Source: Chiloscyllium plagiosum
Lineage: Eukaryota
Reading direction: 5' to 3'
NCBI RefSeq assembly: GCF_004010195.1
Contig: NW_025214668.1
Span: forward strand, 6,652 to 48,435
Length of the DNA stretch: 41,784 nucleotides
The translations under genes and the position numbers were made by a program. The notes under the pieces were generated by a model. It was not told where the DNA came from, did not search any database, and was given only the letters and a program-made list of their open reading frames with translations. Below, in pieces: positions 27,001-41,784 of this stretch (its first letter is position 1; every line of letters begins with the position of its first letter).

Positions 27001-27543
27001 TGATATCAGTGACTAGGGGATCAGCCATGGTCTCAGTGAGTAGGGGATCAGCCATAACATCAGTGAGTAGGGAATCAGCCATGGTCTCAGTGAGTAGGGG
27101 ATTAGCAATGCTCTCAGTAAGTCGGAGGTCAGCCATGATCTCAGTGAGTCGGAGATCAGCCATGGTCCCAGTGAGTAGGGGATCAGCCATGATATCAGTG
27201 AGTAGGAGGTCAGCCATGATCTCAGTGAGTAGGAGGTCAGCCGTGATATCAGTGAGTAGGGGATCTGCCATGGTCTCAGTGAGTACGAGATCAGCCATGA
27301 TCTCAGTGAGTCGGAGATCAGCCATGTTCTCAGTGAGTAGGAGGTCAACAATGATATCAGTGAGTAGGGGATCTGCCATGGTCTCAGTAAGTTTTAGATC
27401 AGCCATGGTCTCAGTGAGTAGGGGAACAGCCATGATCTGAGTGAATTGGAGATCAGCATGATCTCAGTGAGTAGTGGATCAGCCATGGTCTCAGTGAGTA
27501 GGTTATTAGCCATGATCTCAGTGAGTAGGAGATATGCCATGAT
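1..27543. repeat. 27-bp tandem satellite array, left part (consensus ATCAGCCATGATCTCAGTGAGTAGGGG), about 1000 diverged copies
   Basis: Continuous head-to-tail 27-bp periodicity from base 1. It translates as 9-aa repeats (MADPLLTEI or SLRSWLIPY on -, SAMISVSRG on +). Frequent substitutions and 1-bp indels. Contains assembly Ns at 2982-3121 and 5279. Confidence 0.97.
2982..3121. other. Assembly gap (140 N)
   Basis: Run of N. Confidence 0.99.
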
Positions 27544-27579
27544 GTTGTGGTTCTGTTCGCCGAGCTGGAAGTTTTTGTT

Positions 27580-27619
27580 GCAAACGTTTCGTCCCCTGGC
27601 TAGGCGACATCATCAGTGC
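27580..27619 (-). ncRNA. Minimal type I hammerhead ribozyme in the PLE 3' end
   Basis: Minus strand reads GCA-CTGATGA-T-GTCGCC-TAGCCA-GGGGAC-GAAAC-GTT-TGC: core boxes CUGAUGA and GAAA, stem II (one mismatch), stem I GCA/TGC and a palindromic AACGTT in place of stem III. Confidence 0.78.
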
Positions 27620-28411
27620 TTGGGAGCCTCCTGCGAAGCGCTTCTTTGATGTTTCCTCCGGTGTTTATAGTGGTCTGTCCCTGCCGCTTCCGGTTGTCAG
27701 TTTCAGCTGTCTGCTGTAGTGGTTGGTATATTGGGTCCAGGTCGATGTGTTTGTTGATGGAGTTTGTGGATGAATGCCATGCCTCTAGGAATTCCCTGAC
27801 TGTTCTCTGTCTGGGTTGCCCTATGATAGTAGTGTTGTCCCAGTCGAATTCATGTTGCTTGTTGTCTGCGTGTGTGGCTACTAAGGATAGCTGGTCGTGT
27901 TGTTTCGTGGCTAGTTGATGTTCATGTATGCGGATTGTTAGCTGTCTTCCTGTTTGTCCTATATAGTGTTTAATGCAGTCCTTGCATGGTATTTTGTACA
28001 CTACATTCGTCTTGCTCATGTTGGGTATCAGGTCCTTCGTTCTGGTGAGTTGTTGTCTGAGCGTGGCTGTTGGTTTGTGTGCCGTTATGAGTCCTCGGGG
28101 TCGCAGTAGTCTGGCAGTCAGTTCCGAGATGCTCCTGATGTATGGTAGTGTGGCTAGTCCTTTTGGTTATGGTATGTCCTCGTTCTGTGGTCTTTCTCTT
28201 AGGCATCTGCTGATGAAGTTGCGCAGGTATCCGTTTTTGGCGAATACCTTGTATAGGTGTTCCTCTTCATCTTTTTGCAGTTCTGGTGTACTGCAGTGTG
28301 TTGTGGCCCTTTTGAATAGTGTCCTGATGCAAATTCGTTTGTGTGTGTTGGGGTGGTTACTTTCATAGTTTAGGACTTGGTCTGTGTGTGTGGCTTTCCT
28401 GTATACTCTTG
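27600..28411 (-). pseudogene. Truncated PLE ORF: RT C-terminus, linker and GIY-YIG endonuclease, with one in-frame stop
   Basis: ORF-track entries 28167..29066 (its C-terminal part) and 27600..28019 are in the same frame, separated by a TAA at 28167-28169. The linker reads ATLPYIRSISELTARLL. The RT catalytic core is absent. Confidence 0.88.
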
Positions 28412-30669
28412 TATGCCATGATCTCAGTGAGTACAGGATCAGCCATGACCTCAGTGAGTAGGGGATGAGCCATGATCTCAGTGAGTTGGTGATCAGCCAT
28501 GATCTCAGTGAGTTGGTGAACAGCCATGATTGCATGAGGAGGACATCAACCATGATCACAGTGAGTACGAGTTCAGCCATGATATCAGTGAGTCGGATAT
28601 CAGCCATTTTCTTAGTGACTAGGGTATCAGCCATGGTCTCAGTGAGTAGGGAATCAGCCATGGTCTCAGTGAGTAGGGGATTAGCAATGCTCTCATTGAG
28701 TAGGAGATCAGCCATGATCTCAGTGAGTAGGGGATCAGCCATGATCTTCGTGGGTAGCAGATCAACCATAGTCTCAGTAAGTCGGATGTCAGCCATGACC
28801 TCAATGAGTCGGGGATCAGACATGGTCTCAGTGAGTTGGAGATCAGCCATTTTCTCAGTGTGTAGGAGGTCAACCATGATCTCAGTGAGTAGGGAATCAG
28901 CCATGATCTCAGTGAATAGGGGATGAGCCATGATCTCAGCGAGTAGGGGATCAGCCATGATCTCACCACGTACTGGATCAGCCATGATCTCAGTGAGGAG
29001 GAGATCAGCCTTGATCTCAGTGATTAGGAGATCAGCCGTCATCTCAGTGAGTAGGGGATCAGCCATGATCTCAGAGACTGGAGGTCAGCCATGATTTCAG
29101 TGAGTAGGGAATCCGCCTTGGTCTCAGCGAGTAGCGGATCAGCCATGATCTCAGTGAGGAGATCAGCCTTGATCTCAGTGAGTAGGAGATCAGCCATGAT
29201 CTCAGTGAGTAGGGGAATCAGCCATGATCTCAGTGAGTAGGGAATCAGCCATGATCTCAGTGAGTAGGGAATCAGCCATAATCTCAATGAGGAGGTGATC
29301 AGTTATGGTCTCAGCGAGTAGGGGATCAGCCATGATCTTAGTGAGTAGGGGATCAGCCATGATCTCAGTGAGTGGGGAAATGCCATGATCTCAGCAAATA
29401 GGGGATCAGCCATGATCTCACCGAGTAGCTGATCAGCCATGATCTCAGTGAGGAGATCAGCCTTGATCTCAATGTGTAGGATATCAGCCATGATCTCAGT
29501 GATTGGGGATCAGCCATGATCTCAGTGAGTAGGGGATCAGCCATGGTCTCAGTGAGTAGGGGATCAGCCATGATCTCACCGAGTAGCGGATCAGACATGA
29601 TCTCAGTGATTAGAGGATCAGACATGATCTCAGTGAGTAGAGGATCAGCTCTGATTTCAATGTGTAGGGGGTCAGACATGATCTCAGAAAGTAGGGGATC
29701 AGCCATGATCTTACTGAGTAGGTGATCCGCCATGGTATCAGTGATTAGGTCATCAGCCATGATCTCAATGAGTTAGTGATCAGCCATTCTCTCAGCGAGT
29801 AGGTGATCAGCCATGATCTCAGTGAGTTAGTGATCAGCCATCCACTCAGTGAGTAGGGCATCAACAATGGTCTCAGTGAGTAGGAAGTTAACCATGATCT
29901 CAGTGAGTAGAAGATCAGCCATGATCTCAGTGAATCGGGGATCAGCCACAATCTCAGTGAATCGGGGATCAGCCGCGGTCTCAGTGTGTAGGGTATCAGC
30001 AATGGTCTCAGTGATTAGGGGACAGCCATAGTGTCAGTGAGTAGGGAATCAGACATGGTCTCAGGGAGTAGGGGATCAGCCCTGACCTCTGTGAGTAGGG
30101 GATCAGATATGGTCTCAGTGAGTCGGGTATCAGCCAGGGTCTCAGTGAGTAGGGGATCAGCCATGATCTCAGTGAGTAGGGAATCAGCCATGGTCTCAGC
30201 GAGTAGGGGATCAGCTATGATCTCAGTGATTGGGGATCAGCCGTGATCTCAGTGATTCGGGGATCAGCCATGATCTCAGTGAGTAGGATATGAGCCATGA
30301 TCTCAGAGAGTAGGGGATCAGCCATTGTCTCAGTGAGTAGTAGTTCATCCATGATCTCAGAGAGTAGGTGATCAGGCATGATCTCTCTGAGTAGGATATC
30401 AGCCATGATTTCAGTGAGTTAGTAATCAGCCATCCTCACAGTGAGTAGTACATCAGATATGGTCTCAGTGTGTTGGAATTCAGCCATAATCTCAGTGAGT
30501 AGGGGTCAGCCAAAGATCTCAGTGAGTAGGGAAACAGCCATGATCTCAGTGATTAGGGGATCAGCCATGGTCTCAGTGATTAAGGGATCAGACATGATCT
30601 CAGAGATTAGGGGATCAGCCATGGTCTCAGTGAGTAGGGTATCAGCCAATGTATCAGTGAGTAGGAGGT
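28412..30669. repeat. 27-bp tandem satellite array, right part
   Basis: The same unit resumes in register after the TSD and ends abruptly at about 30669. Confidence 0.96.
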
Positions 30670-31859
30670 TCATTGAATGAGGGAGTGAAACTCGTTGCAC
30701 TGAATCAATAAATGTAGTTTGATTCACTGAATCAGTGTGTGAAACTCGTTACACTGAATCATTGAATTAGTTTGTTTCATTTAATAAAAGAGTGAAGTCG
30801 ATTCTTTGAAGGGAGATTGTTTCACTGAATGAACAAGATCAGCTAAATTCATTGCATGCATGAGTGAGGTTTGTTTCTTCGAGTGAATGCGTGGTTACTT
30901 TCATTGAATGAATGAATGTAATTTGATTTATTGAATGGATGTGTGAAACTCATTTCACAGAATTAATGATCGTAGCTTAATTCATTGAACGAGTGAGTGA
31001 AACTCGTTTCAGTGAATCTCTGAATATAAGCTCGGCTCATTGCATGCAGGGATGAAGTCTGTTTCTTCTAATGAATGCTTGAAGTTAATTTCAGAGAATT
31101 ACAGAGAAAGTACTTTGATTCATTGAATGTGTGCGTGAATCTCATTTCGCTGTGTCAAGGAATGTTGCTTAATTCATTAATTGTGTGAGTGAAACTCGTT
31201 TCATTGAATCTATGAGTACACATTGAGTCACTGACTTGACTGAGTCGAGATGAGCATGAATGAATTCAGTTTGTTTCAACAAATGAATGTGTGAAATTAA
31301 TTTCAGTGAAAGAATTAATTTGGTTTGGTTCATTGAATGATTGAGTGATACTCATTTCACTGAGTAATTGAATGTCGTTTAATTCATTGAATGTTTGAAT
31401 GAAACTCTTTTCATTGAATCTGTGAATATAGAATGTCCGTGTCGATTCGGTCACCCGAGATAGAAATGGAAAGGTCTAGGAAGGGGAGGGAGGAGTCTGA
31501 GATGGTCCAGGTGAATTTGAGGTCGGGGTGGAAGGTGTTGGTGAAGTGGATGAACTGTTCAACCTCCTCGTGGGAGCATGAGGCAGCGCCAATACAGTCA
31601 TTGATGTAGCGGAGGCAAAGGTGGGGGTGGTGCCAGTGTAGCTGCGGAAGATGGACTGTTCCACATATCCTACGAAGAGGCAGGCATAGCTGGGGCCCAT
31701 GTGCGTGCCCATGGCTACTCCTTTGGTTTGTAGGAAGTGGGAGGATTGGAAAGAGAAGTTGTTCAGAGTGAGGACCAGTTCAGTCAGTCGAAGGAGGGTG
31801 TCAGTGGAAGGGTACTGGTTGGTACAGCGGGAAAGGAAGAAGCGGAGGGCTTTAAGTCC

Positions 31860-32174: not shown

Positions 32175-32479
32175 TTCCGAGGGTGAGAGGTTGGAGTGGG
32201 TGAGAGGGGTGGAGAGGTTGAGGCGGTTAATGTCACGGCAGCAGTTAGCTATGAAGAGATCGAGGGCGGGTAAGAGGTGGATGGGATGTGTTTGAGGTGG
32301 GAGAAGGGGTCGTCAGAGGGTGGGCGAGAGTCTTGGTTGAAGAAGTAGGCGCGGAGGCGAAGGCGGCGGAAGAATTGTTCAATGTCACGCCGCATGTTGA
32401 ACTCGTTAATCTGAGAGCATAGGGGACTGAAGGTGAGGCCTCTGCTGAGGACTGATCTTTCACCCTCAGAGAGGGGAAG

Positions 32480-32674
32480 TTCTGGAGGGATGGTGAAAAC
32501 ACGGCAGGGCTGGGAGCTAGGACCTGGTGTGGGGCTGGATCTGGGAGTGGGGGCGGGATTGGGCGTGGGGTCGGGAACGGATTTTCTGGAGGGATGGTGA
32601 AAACACGGCAGGGCTGGGAGCGAGGACGTGGTGTGGGGCTGGAGCTGGGAGTGGGGGCGCGGTTGGGCGTGGGG
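32480..32674. repeat. Internal direct duplication (period 104 bp) in the PLE N-terminal region
   Basis: TTCTGGAGGGATGGTGAAAACACGGCAGGGCTGGGAGC starts at both 32480 and 32584. Confidence 0.85.
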
Positions 32675-32690
32675 AGCTGGGAGTGGGATG

Positions 32691-33771
32691 ACCGACTCCC
32701 ACAGACTACACCTCCTCCCACCCTGCCCCCTGTAAAAACGCCATCCCATATTCTCAATTCCTTCGTCTCCGCCGCATCTGCTCCCAGGAGGACCAGTTCC
32801 AAAACCGTACAACCCAGATGGCCTCCTTCTTCAAGGACCGCAATTTCCTGCCAGACGTAGTCGACGATGCCCTCCACCGCATCATTTCCACTTCCCGCTC
32901 CTCCGCCCTTGAGCCCCGCCCCTCCAACTGCCTCCAGAACAGAACACCACTGGTCCTCACCTACCACCCCACCAACCTCCATGTACAACATATCACCCGC
33001 CGTCATTTCCGCCACCTCCAAACGGACCCCACCACCAGGGATATATTTCCCTCCCCTCCCCTATCAATGTTCTGAAAAGACCACTCCCTCCGTGACTCCC
33101 TCGTCAGGTCCACATCCACCACCAACCCAACCTCCACTTCCGGCACCTTCCCCTACAACCGCAAGAAATGCAAAACTTGCGCCCACAACTCACCCCTTAT
33201 GTCCCTCCAAAGCCCCAAGGGACACTTCCATATCCGCCACAAATTCACCTGCACCTCCACACACATCATCTATTGCATCTGCTGCACCCGATGTGGCCTC
33301 CTCTATATTGGGGAGACAGGCCACCTACTTGCGGAACGTTTCAGAGAACACCTCTGGGACACCCGGACCAACCAACCCAACCACCCCGTAGCCCAACACT
33401 TTAACTCCCCCTCCCACTCCACCAAGGACATGCAGGTCCTTGGATTCCTCCATTGCCAGACCATGACAACACGACGGTTGGAGGAAGAGCGCCTCATCTT
33501 CTGCCTGGGAACCCTCCAACCACAAGGGATGAACTCAGATTTCTCCAGTTTCCTCATTTCCCCTCCCCCCTACCTTGTCTCAGTGAAATCCCTCGAACTC
33601 AGCACCGCCTTCCTCACCTGCAATCTTCTTCCTGACCTCTCCGCCCCCACCCCACTCCGGCCTATCACCCTCACCTTGACCTCCCTCCACCTATCGCAAT
33701 TCCAACGCCCCTCCCCCAAGTCCTCCCTACCTTTTATCTTAGCCTGCTGGACACACTTTCCTCATTCCTGA
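32691..33771 (+). pseudogene. PLE RT thumb, Cys-rich linker and GIY-YIG endonuclease, with an in-frame stop at 33073-33075
   Basis: DYTSSHPAPCKNAIPYSQFLRLRRICS; F*KDHSLRDSLVRS; NRKKCKTC; IIYCICCTRCGLLYIGETG..LAERFREH...PVAQHF...GTLQPQGMN. ORFs 32818..33075 and 33199..33771 share a frame. Confidence 0.9.
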
Positions 33772-33799
33772 AGAAGGGTTTATGCCAGAAACGTCGATT
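33764..33799 (+). ncRNA. Minimal hammerhead ribozyme (partly degenerate) in the Neptune-type PLE 3' end
   Basis: ATTC-CTGAAGA-A-GGGT-TTAT-GCCA-GAAAC-GTC-GATT: CUGANGA at 33768-33774, GAAA at 33788-33791 and a GUC cleavage triplet at 33793-33795. Stem II is weakened by a mismatch. Confidence 0.72.
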
Positions 33800-36700
33800 C
33801 TCCTGTTCCTTGGATGCTGCCAGACCTGCTGCCCTTTTCAAGCAACACATTTTCAGCTCTGATCTCCAGCATCTGCAGTCCTCACTTTCTCCAAGAACAG
33901 CTAGAGTCATTGCATACATGCATGAAGTTCATTTGTTCGAATGAATGCGTGAGATGAGTTTCATTGAATGCATGAATGTAGTTTGATTTATTGAATGAGT
34001 GTCTGAAACTCATTTCACTGAATCAAAGAATGTAGCTTAATTCATTGTATATGTGCGTGAAACACATTTCCGTCAATCTACTGACTCAAATCACTCGAGT
34101 CATTGCATGCATTGAAGTCTGTTTCTCCGAATGATGGTGTGAAGTTGATTCCATTGAATGAATGAAAGTAATTTGGTTTCACTGAGTCAAGGAATGTTGC
34201 TTAATTCATTAATTGTGTGAGTGAAATTCGTTTCATTGAATCTATTAGTATAGATTGAACCACTGACTCAACAAGATGAGCTCGAGTAATTGCATGAATG
34301 AATTCAGTTTGTCCCTACAAATGAATGCTTGAAGATTATTTCACTGAATGAATTAATACAGTTTGAATCGTTGAATGATTGAGTGACTCTCATTTCACTG
34401 AGTAATTGAATGTCGTTTAATTGATTGAATGATTGAACGAAACTCTTTTAATCGAATCGGTGAATATAGAATAACAACAAGATAAGCTCGAGTCAAAGCT
34501 TGAATGAATGACGTTTGTTTCCACGAATGAATGACTCAAGTTAATTTCATGGAAAGAAGTCGTATGACTTCCGGAATGAGTGTTCGAAAGCCATTTCACT
34601 GAATTACGGAATGTAGCTTAGTTCACGAATGAGTGAAACTCGTTTCATTGAATCTGTGAGCATAGATTTATTCAGGGGATGAACGAGAAAAGCTCATGAA
34701 TGAATGCAGTTTGATTGTTCAAATGAACGCGTAATGTTTATTTCATTGAAAGAATGAACATAGTTCATTGAATGAGTGAGTGAAACACGTTGCACTGAAT
34801 GAATGCAGTTTGATTCACTGTATAAGTGAGTGAAAGTCCTTTCACTGAATCAAGGAATGTAGTTTGCTTCATTGAATCAGTGTGTAACTCGTTACACCGA
34901 ATCATTGAAAGTAGTTTGTTTCATTTAATGAAAGGGTGAAACTCGCTTCTTTCAAGGAAGATGTTTTCACTGAATGAACAAGATCAGCTAAGTTCATTGC
35001 ATGCATGAATGAAGTGTGTTTCTTCGAATGAATGCGTGAAGTTGGTTTCATTGAATGAATGAAAGCAGTTTGATTCATTGAATGAGTGAGTAAAAGTCGT
35101 TTCATTGAACCTATGAATATAGACTGATTCACTGAATGATAGAAAAAAGCTCCAGTCATTGCATGAATGAATGCAGTTTGTTTGTTCAAATGAATGCGTG
35201 ATGTTTATTTCATTGAAAGAATGAACGTAGTTTGATTGATTGAATGAGGGAGTGAAACTCCTTTCACTGAATCAAGGGATGTAGTTTAATTAATTGAATC
35301 AGTGTGTGAAACTCGTTTCACTGAATCAATGAAAGCAGCTTGATGCATTGAATGAAAGTTTCAAACCCGTTTCTTTGAATGTTGGTTGATTCACTGAATG
35401 AACAAGATCAGCTAAAGTCATTGCATGTATGAATGAAGTTTGTTTCTTCGAATGATTGCGTGAGGTGAGTTTCATTGAATGCATATATGTAATTTGATTT
35501 ATTGAATGGGTGTGTGAAACTCATTTCACTGAATCAATGATTGTAGCTTAATCCATTGAATGAGTGAGTGAAATGGATGTGTGAAGTAAGTTTCATTGAA
35601 TAAATGAAAGTAGTTTGACTCATTGAATGAGTGAGTGAAACTCGTTGCACTGAATCAATGGATGTAGTTTGATTCACTGAATAAGCGAGTGAAACTCCTG
35701 TCATTGAATCAAGGAATTTGGTTTAATTCATTGAATCAATGTGTGTGAAACTCGTTTCACAGAATCATTGATAGTAGTTTGATTTATAGAATAAGAGAGT
35801 GAAACCCGCTTCTTTGAAGGTATGTTGATTCACTATATGAACAAGAACAGCTTGTTCATATAGTGTGAAGTTTATTTCTTCGAATGAATGCGTGAGATTA
35901 GTTTCATTGAATGCATGAATGTAGTTTGATTTATTGAATGTGTGTGTGAAACTCATTTCACTGAATCAAAGAATGTAGCTTAATTCATTGTATAAGTGCG
36001 TGAAACACATTTCAGTGAATCTATGAATATAAGCTCGACTCATTGCACACAGTTATGAGGTCTGTTTCTTCTAATGAATGCGTGAATTTAATTTCAGAGA
36101 ATGAATGAAAGTACTTTGATTCATTGAATGTGTGCGTGAATCTCATTTCGCTGTGAATGTTGCTTAATTCATTAATTGTGTGAGTGAAACACGTTTCATT
36201 GAATCTATGAGTACACACTGATTCACTGACTTAATGAGATGAGCTCGACTCATTCAGTTTGTTTCTACAAATGATTGCGTGAAGTTAATTTCATTGAAAA
36301 ATTAATTTGGTTTGGTTCATTGAATGATTGAGTGATACTCATTTCACTGAGTAATTGAATGTCGTTTAATTCATTGAATGTTTGAATGAAACTCTTTTCA
36401 TTGAATCTGTGAATATAGAATGATTCAACCAATCACCGAGATACGCTCGAGTCAGAGCTTGAAAGAATGACATTTGTTTCTACCAATGAATGAGCCAAGT
36501 TAATTTCACGGAATGATTGTCTTTTGATTTATTGAATGAGTATTCATAACCAATTTCACTGAATCAACGATTGTAGCTTAGTTCATTAAATGATTGAGTG
36601 AAACTCGTTTCATTATATTTGTGAGCACAGATTAATTCACGCAATGAACGAGTTCAGCACGAGTGACTGCATGAATGATTGAAGTTTGCATCTTCGTATG

Positions 36701-37211: not shown

Positions 37212-37528
37212 GGGAGGCATGGTGGCTCAGTGGTTAGCACTGCTGCCTCACAGCACCAGGGTCCCAGGTTCGATTCCAGCCTTGGGTGACTGTGTGGAGT
37301 TTGAACATTCTCCCCATGTCTGCTTGTGTTTCCTCCGGGTGCTCCGGTTTCTTCCCACAGTCCAAGGATGTGCAGGTCAGGTGAATTGGCCATGCTAAAT
37401 TGCCCATAGTGTTAGCTGCTTTAATCAGAGGGAAATGGGTCTGGGTGGGTTACTCTTGGGAGGGTCGGTGTGGACTTGTTGGGCCGAAGGGCCTGTTTCC
37501 ATGCTGTAAGGAATCTAATCTAAAACAA
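37212..37528 (+). mobile_element. tRNA-derived V-SINE (HE1-like, elasmobranch)
   Basis: tRNA-like head with Pol III boxes; central V-domain-like GTGTGGAGTTTG..CATTCTCCCC...TTTCCTCCGGGTGCTCCGGTTTC.TCCCACAGTCCAA; LINE-like tail GGGCCGAAGGGCCTGTTTCC..ATCTAATCTAA. Confidence 0.9.
37223..37277 (+). promoter_or_regulatory. RNA polymerase III internal promoter (A and B boxes) of the SINE
   Basis: A box TGGCTCAGTGG at 37223-37233; B box GGTTCGATTCC at 37267-37277. Confidence 0.85.
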
Positions 37529-39627
37529 ATTCACTGAATAATTGAGTGAAACTCCTTTCAATGATTCAAGGAATGTAGTTTAATTCATTGAATCAGTGAA
37601 ATCCGCTTCTTTGAATGTAGGCAGATTCACAGAATGAACAAGATCAGTTAAAGTCATTGCATGCATGAATGAAATTTGTTTCCTCGAACGAATGCGTGAA
37701 GTTAAGTTCATTGAAAGAATGAGTGTAGTTTGATTCACTGAATGCGTGTGGGAAACTATTTCACTTAAACAAGGAATGTAGTTTAATTCATTGAATGAGT
37801 GAGTGAAACTCAGTTCATTGATTCTATGAATATAGGTTGACGCAGTGAAACAACGAGATAAACTCCAGTTCTTGCATGAAGGAATGAAGTTTGTTTCTAC
37901 AAATGAATGCGGGATGTTTGTTTCATTGAATGAATGAATGTAGTTCGATTCATTGAATGTGTGTGCAACTGATTTCACTGAATCAAGGAATATAGTTTAA
38001 TTCATTGAATGAGTGAGTGAAACTCGTTTCAGTGAATCTATGACTATGCATTGACCCAATGCATAAAAGAGATAAGCTCGAATCATTTTATGAATGAATG
38101 AAGCTTGTTTCTACGAATGAATGCGCGAAGTTAATTTCATTTGAATGAATTAATGTAATTTGATTCGTTGAGTGAGTGTGTGAAACTCATTTCACTGAAT
38201 TATGGAATGTAGCTTATTTCATTAAATGAGTGAGTGAAACTCGTTTCTTTGAAGCTATGAGTGTAGATTAGTTCACTGAATGAACGAGATAAGCTTGACT
38301 CATTGAATAAATAAATGCAGTTTGTTTCTTAGAATGAATGCGTGATGTTTATTTCATTGAATGAATGAATGTAGTTTGATTCATTGAATGTTAGAGATAA
38401 GCTCGAATCATTGCATGAATGAATGAAATTTGTTTCTACGAATGAAAGCGTGAAGTTAATTTCATTGAATGAATGAATATAGCGTTATTCATTGAATCAG
38501 TGTGTGAAACGCATTTCACTGAATCTTTGAAAATAGTTTGATCCATTGAATGTGTGAGCGTTGAAATTATGAATGTAGATTGATTCACTGAATGAACAAG
38601 ATCAGCTAAATTCACTGCAAGAATGAACGAAAATTATTTGTTTGAATGAATGAGTGTAGTTTATTTCACTGATTGAATGAATGAAGTTTGTTTCTTCGAA
38701 CGAATGCGTGAAGTTAATTTCATTGAATGAATGAATGAATTTCATTGAATGAGTGTGTGAAACTCATTTCACTGAATCATGCAATGTAGCTTAATTCCTT
38801 AAATACGTGAGTTAAACTACTGTCATTGAATCTATGAGTATAGATTAAGATAAGCTCGAATGAATGAAGTTTGTTTCTACCATTAACTGAGTGCGTGAAA
38901 CTCCTATCATTGAATCTATGAGTATAGATGAATTCAATGAATGAATGAGATCAGCTCGAGTCATTGCATGAATGAATGCAGTTTGTTTCTTTGAATGAAT
39001 GCGTAATGTTTGTTTCATTGAATGAATGATTGTACTCATTGAATAAGTGTGTGGAACTCATTTCAACCAATCAAGGTATGTAGTTTAATTCATTGAATGA
39101 GTCTGTGAACCTCCTTTCATTCAATCATTGACTCACTGAAACAATGAGACAAGCTCGAGTCATTGAATGAATGAAATTTGTTTCTTCGAATGAATGCGTG
39201 AAGTTAATTTCATTGAATGTAGCTTGATTCATTGCATGAGTGAGTGAAACTCGTTTCATTGAATCTATGAATATAGGTTGACTCAGTGAAAAAAACGAGA
39301 TTATCTCAAGTCATTTATGAAGTTTGCTTGTTTGAATGAATACATGATGATTCTTTCCTTGAATGAATGAATGAAGTGTGTGGTATTCATTTCATTGGAT
39401 CAAGGAATGTAGTTTAATTCATTGAATGAGTAAGTGAAACTCAGTTCATTGAATCTATGGATATAGGTTGACTCACTGAAAAAGCGAGATAAGCTCGAGT
39501 CATTGCATGAATGAACGAAGTTTGTGTATTTGAATGAATGCGTGATGATTCTTTCATTGAATGAATGAATGAAGTATGATTCATTGAATGAGTGTGTGGT
39601 ATTCATTTCACTGGATCAAGGAATGAA

Positions 39628-39784
39628 TAGTGCTGGAGGCAGCAGGGGCGGCCACTTGTCGACATCAGCGAAAAGGATTTAGAGTGACATACACGCTGGC
39701 TGCCAGCAGCGTGGTGAAACAGTTGTCGGCCAGCGAGTGGAGGCATGCACGCTGGTGCAGCCTCACCATCCTTTTACTCTGCAT
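39628..39784 (+). other. Probable decayed ITS2 3' end
   Basis: GC-richer non-satellite sequence immediately upstream of the 28S 5' end. Assigned by position only. Confidence 0.5.
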
Positions 39785-41678
39785 GCAACCTCAGACCAGA
39801 CACAACAACCCACTGAATTAAAGCATATTACTAAGCGGTGGACAAGACATTAACCTGGATTCCCCTAGTAACTGCGAGTGAACAGGGAAGAGCCCAGCAA
39901 TTAATCATCACTCACATGACGGCTACAGGAAATCATCCGTTCTCCAATGATGCCAAGTCGCCCAAGTCCTCCTGATTGAGGACTAGACTGGAGACGCTGT
40001 GAGGCCAGTGGTGCTGCATGGCTCATTAGGATTGCATCTTCTTGGAGTCAGATTGCTTGTGAATGCAGCCCAGAGCAGATGGGAAACTCCATCTAAGGCT
40101 AAATACTGTCACAAGGGAGAAAGTGAGGTCTGCAGATGCTGGAGATCAGAGATGGAAATGTGTTGCTGGAAAAGCGCAGCAGGTCAGGCAGCATCTAGGG
40201 AACAGGAGAATCGACGAAGAAGGGCTAATGTCCGAAACGTCGATTCTCCTGTTCCCTAGATGCTGCCTGACCTGCTGCGCTTTTCCAGCAACACATTTCC
40301 ATCTCAAAATACTGTCACAAGACTGATAGTCAACAAGTACTGTAAGAAAGGTGGAAAGAACTTTGCAGAGACAGTTCAGGAGGTGCTCGTTCCACACGCA
40401 GTTTTATCCGGTAAAGTGAATGTTTAGAAGTCTTGGGGCCAAAGAAATCTCAACCTATTCTCAAACTTTGGATGGGTAAGATACCCGACTCGCTGGCATG
40501 GAGCTGGGCGTAGAATATGTGAGGGACAGTAGCCCATTTTTAATAAGTAGATTTGGTATTTCGGGATGAACTGAACTCTGGGTAAAGACACCCAATGCCG
40601 ACACTTATCAGACCGCACAAAAGGTGTTGGTTAATATCGACAGTGGCCATAGAATTTGGAATCCATTCAGCCGTGTGTAACAACTCATCTGCGGAAGGAA
40701 CCCGTCCTGAAAATTGATGGAGCGTCGGGTAACCCTGCCACAACTGGTAATGCAGAGCCTGCGGGGTATATGCAGCAATGAGTAGGAGGGCCGTTGTGGT
40801 GAGCATGGAAGGTGAGGCCGTGGGCCCTGGTGGAGTCGTCACCGGTGCAGATCTTGGTGGTAACAGCAAATATTCAAATAAGAACATTGAAGGCCGAAGT
40901 GGAGAAGGGTTCAATGTGACAGCAGTTGAATGTTGATCATTTGGTCCTCAGAGATAGACGACTGCCATTCCGAAGGGACAGGCGATGTCCAGAGTGGCAG
41001 AGATGAGCGCCTCACAGTGTCCAGTGTGGTAATGCAAACAATCCTGGAGAAGCCAGCAGGAGCCCCAGGGACAGTTCATTTTTCTTTGTGAAGGGCACTC
41101 TGGAATGGGTTAGACCCAAGAGAGGTCTAGACCCATGTGTTGAAAAGCATTGCGGTTCTGGTGGCATCCAGTGAGGTCTTGCTGCCCCTTGAAAATTTGG
41201 GGGACATGGTGTAAATCTCACACCAAGCTGTACCCATATCCACAGCAGGTCTCGAAGGTGAACAACCTCTGGCAAGTCAAAATGTTGTAAGTAAGGAAAG
41301 TTGGCAAGTCAAACCTGTAACTTCAGGAAAAGGATTGGCTCTAAGGACTAGGCCAGTCGGGGTGGGATGCAAAGTGGGGTTGGGCATGTGACCCTGGATG
41401 ACCTTCTCCCGGGGGCTTGGTAGTGACTCTGGACTCACACCGGGCCCTTCCTGTGGATCACCCCAGCTGCGGTGTGCCTCGTCCTTCCATGGCAGGTGGA
41501 TGGCCTTGTCTGGCCATCTGGTGAAGACATGGGGAATCCCACCATTTAATTAAAACAAAGCATCATAAAGGCCTCAGGTTGGAATTGACACAACATGATT
41601 ACTGCCCGCTCTGAATGTCAAGGTGAAGAAATTCAATGAAGCATGGGTAAATTGCAGGAGTAGTTATGACTCTCTTAA
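39785..41678 (+). pseudogene. Degenerate 28S rRNA pseudogene with internal deletions and an insertion
   Basis: Recognisable LSU motifs in the correct order: ACCTCAGA..ACCC.CTGAATT.AAGCATAT; AAACTCCATCTAAGGCTAAATAC; CAGTTTTATCCGGTAAAG; GGTGCAGATCTTGGTGGTA..AGCAAATATTCAAA; GTACCCATATCC.CAGCAGGTCTC.AAGGTGAACA; TTTAATTAAAACAAAGCATC; CTCTGAATGTCAA.GTGAAGAAATTCAATGAAGC; ATGACTCTCTTAA. Many CpG to TpG/CpA changes. Confidence 0.95.
40116..40306 (-). mobile_element. 191-bp palindromic insertion made of two inverted copies of a Neptune-type PLE 3' end
   Basis: 15-bp TSD AAATACTGTCACAAG (40101-40115 and 40307-40321); perfect 68-bp inverted arms at 40149-40216 and 40238-40305; sequence closely similar to 33770-33892. 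Confidence 0.92.
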
Positions 41679-41784
41679 TAACTATGGAGGAGGTAGATCA
41701 AGGACACTCGATCCAAAGTGAGACTTGGCGGCAAGAATGTTACAGGAATTATTCCTGATTGTGACAAAACCTGCGTCCTTAATG
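41679..41784 (+). mobile_element. Candidate 5'-truncated R2 non-LTR retrotransposon at the 28S target site (runs off the window)
   Basis: 28S similarity ends at GACTCTCTTAA and the expected GGTAGCCAAATG is absent. The following sequence is not rRNA and reads ITMEEV in one frame, reminiscent of the motif preceding non-LTR RT domains. Only 106 bp are visible. Confidence 0.55.

Follow-up and report, generated by a model that had tools for sequence, protein, structure and literature searches.

A decayed shark 28S rRNA copy breaks off at the R2 target site, probably followed by the eroded stump of an R2 retrotransposon

The 28S rRNA copy and its satellite setting

The window (the whole stretch of DNA analysed, 41,784 nucleotides) is occupied for about 39 kb by 27-bp and related satellites, at the end of which lies a copy of the 28S rRNA gene (Table 1). 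The Rfam model LSU_rRNA_eukarya (RF02543) matches from position 39786 on with 644 bits (E = 6e-173), and about 600 model positions near 40380 are absent from the alignment. The copy is 66–85% identical to the invertebrate 28S of the loci fetched for comparison and has a CpG observed/expected ratio of 0.40. Its aligned blocks contain 0–24 gap openings each, which indicates that deletion has been common at this locus. Combining 28S homology with decay, the stretch is a 28S rRNA pseudogene, and it is old. The satellite surroundings are of shark type, and by eye the 28S expansion segment is nearest to the carpet-shark 28S rows in the accessible part of Table S2 of PMC13188248.

Directly upstream of the copy, the GC content rises to 0.57, against 0.32–0.40 in the preceding satellite. 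This flank contains no 5.8S or other Rfam match at E < 0.16; its position suggests that it is likely the decayed end of ITS2, which would fit an rDNA unit copied at the DNA level and equally a pre-rRNA template. Within the copy, a palindromic insertion has 68-nt arms that are 100% complementary, and comparison with one fetched locus (L078) shows the 28S sequence to be uninterrupted on either side of it. The insertion, with its 15-nt target duplication, is young and postdates the 28S copy. One of its arms resembles the end of an element at approximately 33760–33890.

Table 1 Positions of the 28S copy, its break and the pieces of the adjoining tail
Feature	Position in window	Strand	Remarks
Non-satellite flank of higher GC content, immediately 5′ of the 28S copy	39625..39785	+	161 nt
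Decayed 28S rRNA copy	39786..41678	+	Model positions 1–2277; CpG-depleted
Palindromic insertion within the 28S copy	40101..40321	.	Between 15-nt direct repeats 40101–40115 and 40307–40321
28S end at R2 target	41670..41678	+	Last 28S base at −2 of the nick
First 8 nt of the tail	41679..41686	+	Short upstream-28S duplication, or I-T-M codons of the R2 piece
R2-like piece 1, ITMEEV	41678..41695	+	Profile nodes 462–467
R2-like piece 2, TLDPK*DLAARM	41704..41739	+	Profile nodes 492–503; stop at the conserved G of DPxG
R2-like piece 3, VTGIIPDCDKTC then VL	41739..41780	+	Profile nodes 509–520, 523–524

Other repeats accompany the satellites. The unit of the 27-bp satellite (positions 5–30665) starts with a 14-mer present in 153 exact copies, and the same 14-mer occurs in the non-coding 5′ part of a fetched locus, L093. 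This part of L093 resembles a CR1 3′ tail, and the 30-kb satellite may derive from such a LINE tail. Positions 1–621 of L093 hold a vertebrate CR1-type reverse transcriptase (RT) fragment in an assembly of Aeromonas cavernicola, where it is likely contamination; a fish-type R2 protein labelled as belonging to an Aeromonas veronii metagenome-assembled genome (P0133) is likely contamination as well. The non-satellite inserts at 27540–28420, 31426–31859 and 32176–33890 are presumably pieces of Penelope-type retroelements, one such candidate being arranged head-to-head around an N gap. An AT-rich satellite contains, at 37212–37524, what we assume to be a tRNA-type SINE of an elasmobranch family.

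The break and the first bases beyond it

The Rfam alignment tracks the consensus to ...CTCTCTTAA / ...UAUGACUCUCUUAA, corresponding to position 41678 (model position 2277), and leaves the remainder unaligned. The last 28S base lies 2 nt before the nick made by R2 retrotransposons. For comparison with real insertions, metagenome contigs were scanned for R2-type 3′ junctions, yielding 93 stretches, many with long RT open reading frames. Both junctions were present in 29 of the 93; one stretch without an insert was dropped, leaving 28 insertions, three rows of which represent the same element. The last 28S base fell between −12 and 0 of the nick in all 28, −12 being the reach of the search, and between −4 and 0 in 17. 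In two it fell at −2, as in the window, one of the two being a truncated 2.5-kb R2 element (locus L029). By our own estimate, a 1.9-kb copy broken off at a random point would end within such a 5-nt interval with a probability well under 1%. The pseudogene thus ends at the conserved 28S site at which R2 5′ junctions lie, and the original prediction that it stops there is borne out. In the same survey, three loci (L010, L021 and L070) carry, at the R2 site, a common insert of 1379 nt. It begins with a short 28S copy, has a longest open reading frame of 216 amino acids and is possibly a non-autonomous R2 derivative.

The first eight bases beyond the break are identical to intact 28S 20–13 nt upstream of it in the fetched loci, a match that, for a fixed start, has a chance probability of about 5.5e-4. 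Read across the junction, the frame gives LLITMEEV, where the amniote R2 consensus has alitakeve. These bases may therefore be either a 28S duplication ahead of an R2 piece or part of an R2 sequence joined through TTAA microhomology. A duplication had originally been put forward as an alternative origin of these bases; the match it rested on is there and a duplication is possible, yet it is compatible with an R2 insertion. According to the accessible parts of PMC2718515 and PMC3774820, R2 5′ junctions commonly show microhomologies of 1–5 nt, small deletions of 28S sequence or 28S duplications. As far as those parts go, the shark copy shares with 5′-truncated Drosophila R2 (PMC2718515), and with the 28S duplications at R2 5′ junctions (PMC3774820), a junction that precedes the nick by a few bases and microhomology or duplicated 28S, whereas those copies are young and inside the rDNA array, and the shark copy is old and in satellite DNA.

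R2-like pieces in the 106-nt tail

The tail extends for 106 nt from the break to the end of the window at 41784. It has no Rfam match at E ≤ 10, no second copy within the window and no match among phages and viral contigs. Individual reading frames of the tail retrieved no R2 from PDB at E ≤ 10, gave HMMER E values of 0.24–1.2 against a hidden Markov model of vertebrate R2s, and in a tblastn comparison with 54 invertebrate open reading frames reached a best E of 0.001, on the reverse strand and away from the relevant region. A first frameshift aligner was non-discriminating, with top scores of 42–45 against a reverse-strand maximum of 41.

A set of 316 R2-type proteins was collected, starting from the invertebrate lineage-A open reading frame of locus L039; it includes R2s with solved structures or their close relatives (PDB 9nl3, 9dou and 9nl2), and it contains no named shark R2. 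A profile of 1209 nodes was built from 48 vertebrate R2s, with the GPDG motif at node 481 and the catalytic ADD at node 706. The tail was compared with it by a custom chained alignment that allows deletions and frameshifts at varied jump costs, with dinucleotide shuffles as the null. The alignment consists of three pieces in three frames, colinear and on the sense strand, spanning nodes 462–524 immediately ahead of the RT in vertebrate R2 proteins of lineage A, and the first piece starts at the junction. The second piece matches the DPKGD of an alligator R2 (P0143, ADPKGDALVE), with a stop at the G. The third, VTGIIPDCDKTC, is identical at 9 of 12 residues to VTGIIPDGIKEC of a turtle R2 (P0058) and fits the profile better than either ITMEEV or DPK*DLAARM. 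The frames ITMEEV and DPK*DLAARMLQELFLIVTKPASL, originally said to resemble loosely the region upstream of the RT core, are present as written, and ITMEEV and DPK*DLAARM do fall on pre-RT nodes; the continuation LQELFLIVTKPASL is in the wrong frame, and the best-fitting piece had been overlooked. All pieces lie on the plus strand, in the sense orientation relative to 28S, and the reverse strand of the tail gives background scores against the 316 proteins.

Shuffle P values for this homology are mostly 0.01–0.05 (range 0.007–0.16), and single frames are not significant. The score against the vertebrate profile was reached by 6 of 400 shuffles at a jump cost of 6 and by 3 of 400 at a cost of 8 or 10. 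With the alignment anchored at the junction, 7–8 of 1000 shuffles reached the score at a cost of 6, 12–29 at 8 and 73–74 at 4. Under a codon-decay model, 10–96 of 1000 shuffles and 2–27 of 378 real tiles of the window did so. Against the 316 individual proteins, 4 of 189 shuffles reached the best score and none of the 189 reached the mean of the top 10 or of the top 30; 18 of the 25 top proteins end at or beside the GxIP...K.C motif before the RT. The best of eight sub-profiles was reached, after correction, by 17 of 1000 shuffles. The amniote sub-profile scored best in this register (2/1000), a termite-type R2 profile scored equally in another register (4/1000), and against other R2 groups comparable scores arise in further registers of this RT-proximal region. 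With the Squalus-like and ghost-shark-like profiles there was no signal (414/1000 and 314/1000). When the first eight bases were removed, the score against the broad profile was reached by 11–159 of 1000 shuffles. The R2 reading requires that approximately 85 of 189 nt have been lost from the tail, the APGPDG motif included, and this is its weak point. The R2 search proposed with the original prediction thus returned a chained, colinear pre-RT match rather than a significant single frame, and the direct support that the sequence lends to an R2 open reading frame is modest.

On the R2 reading, the tail would carry IT.EEV, DP.GD and VTGIIPD..K.C in the order and spacing seen before the RT of vertebrate lineage-A R2s from turtles (PDB 9nl2, P0053 and P0058), a crocodilian (P0143) and zebra finch (R2Tg; PDB 9dou and 9nl3), which also share the 28S site and orientation. 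Unlike those elements, the tail is an eroded sequence of 106 nt, interrupted by frameshifts and a stop, and the 5′ UTR, ribozyme, zinc fingers, Myb domain, RT core and endonuclease are not visible in it. The absence of the 5′ features of a full-length R2 (a 5′ UTR with an HDV-like ribozyme, zinc fingers and a Myb domain) is expected for a 5′-truncated copy. Chondrichthyan R2s (R2Sqj, PMC5035012; R2-1_CPl, CPu, STig, SAc, CMi and others, Table S2 of PMC13188248, both sources in part) share the host group and target. In the accessible part of PMC13188248, the ghost-shark R2 open reading frame has ISVEEV, DPEG and VTGVIP in the same order as the tail. By eye, the tail shows no likeness to those 5′ ends of R2s from sharks, rays and chimaeras that are visible (15 table entries, 13 elements), a comparison that for carpet sharks concerns 5′ ends and not the RT-proximal region. 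An unscored by-eye comparison with Squalus R2 DNA showed identity at 9 and at 8 bases on the two sides of an 8-nt gap, at EEV...IKE; it was not counted, as the same IKD aligns equally well to LKD in turtle and alligator R2s.

Origin of the locus

Several other origins were weighed. The break might be an R2 footprint, and the tail mostly an 8-nt 28S duplicate followed by DNA of other origin that a later deletion or rearrangement placed there; the likeness to R2 peptides would then be due to chance. The improbability of the eight-base match, the failure of the peptide comparison at some settings and the further large deletions at the locus speak for this, but the pieces are colinear and on the sense strand from the junction on. 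Without the first eight bases, moreover, the score against the amniote profile, a profile picked post hoc, was still reached by none of 1000 shuffles at costs of 6 and 8 (23/1000 at 4). We regard this explanation as unlikely. Slightly less probable still is a fragment of a non-R2 LINE, of the CR1, L2, Tx1 or L1 type, with R2-like RT-proximal motifs and joined at TTAA by chance. Such LINEs are plentiful in sharks, and the second register of the tail (WRQ-NVT, NLRP) resembles general LINE motifs found also in the CR1-type open reading frame of L093. Two non-R2 sequences were scored, and neither matches the tail: the score of L093 was reached by 207 and 98 of 1000 shuffles as DNA and by 115 and 237 of 1000 as protein, and the protein P0269 gave no match. 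A CR1-type tail was rejected on the single control L093. By eye, DPxG and K.C are missing from the corresponding places of human L1, and a join made by chance in a 1.9-kb copy would hardly be expected to land within a few bases of the R2 nick.

That the tail is 28S resuming past a deletion, or reflects a chance break or an assembly join at the contig end, appears very unlikely. The window does end 106 nt past the break. Against 46 pieces of downstream 28S, however, the tail gave a best E of 0.53, with a lenient score reached by 15 of 200 shuffles, whereas two control pieces of the same copy were matched at E = 1e-11 and 4e-6, and resumed 28S was rejected accordingly. One study besides the possible source contains 0.42–0.65 of the words of 41000–41784, which indicates that the locus exists without thereby showing the junction itself. 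A DNA transposon of the piggyBac or Pokey type that targets this TTAA is in our judgement extremely unlikely. Pokey inserts at one 28S TTAA in Daphnia, and the flanking bases given in the accessible part of PMC3849761 appear to fit this site; the same part reports Pokey-like open reading frames from Daphnia, silkmoth, tunicate and rotifer only. The tail, one end of which lies within the window, resembles an RT-proximal region and not a transposon end.

In our view the tail is, with good probability, the eroded 5′ stump of a 5′-truncated, sense-oriented lineage-A R2, in an rDNA unit that was later stranded and eroded. The fossil rDNA unit with a 5′-truncated R2 that had been proposed thus remains the best reading, with the break at −2 and the modest pre-RT match behind it. 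In such a sequence of events, R2 protein would have nicked an rDNA unit, and target-primed reverse transcription would have halted just before the RT-coding region. The cDNA would then have been joined to the top strand after TTAA, through microhomology or an 8-nt slip copy of upstream 28S. Without the R2 ribozyme the unit would have been dead; it may subsequently have been moved or stranded at the DNA level into satellite DNA and methylated there. Erosion would have followed by point changes, small deletions (net losses of approximately 64, 16 and 6 nt in the tail) and the later palindromic insertion. If nothing more has been lost, 28S would be met again at TAGCC about 2.7 kb downstream, after 748 codons and about 0.5 kb of 3′ UTR; a 3′ UTR of 478 nt is given for R2-1_CPu in the accessible part of PMC13188248. 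Among the runs listed as containing words of 41000–41784, none is an RNA run. The locus has no present function in our assessment.

A different route to the same junction seems to us quite improbable: the whole unit would be a retrocopy of a ribozyme-less pre-rRNA co-transcript (ITS2 end, 28S and truncated R2), reverse transcribed from the R2 3′ UTR by R2 protein in trans and pasted into the satellite, and the R2 would belong to an extinct amniote-like lineage outside the catalogued shark R2s. If this were true, R2 itself would scatter 28S pseudogenes, and the copy would end at the R2 3′ UTR, followed by little downstream 28S, if any.

On the preferred reading of a stranded rDNA unit, the locus is an ordinary fossil: both the element and its presence in this host group are known already. 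The suggestion that it records an elasmobranch R2 lineage adds little, because shark and ray R2s were already published in 2016 and 2026 (PMC5035012 and PMC13188248, as far as the accessible text of each goes): R2Sqj is a shark R2 (PMC5035012), and R2s of lineages A and D are known from sharks, rays and chimaeras, lineage A being carried by sharks (PMC13188248). The literature found on dispersed R2-bearing rDNA pseudogenes consists of insect papers only, and no claim is made that such a case is unpublished. At most, the locus would indicate that a lineage-A R2 once inserted, long ago, into the rDNA of this shark lineage. Given an extended flank, stranded units of this kind could serve to date old R2 families.
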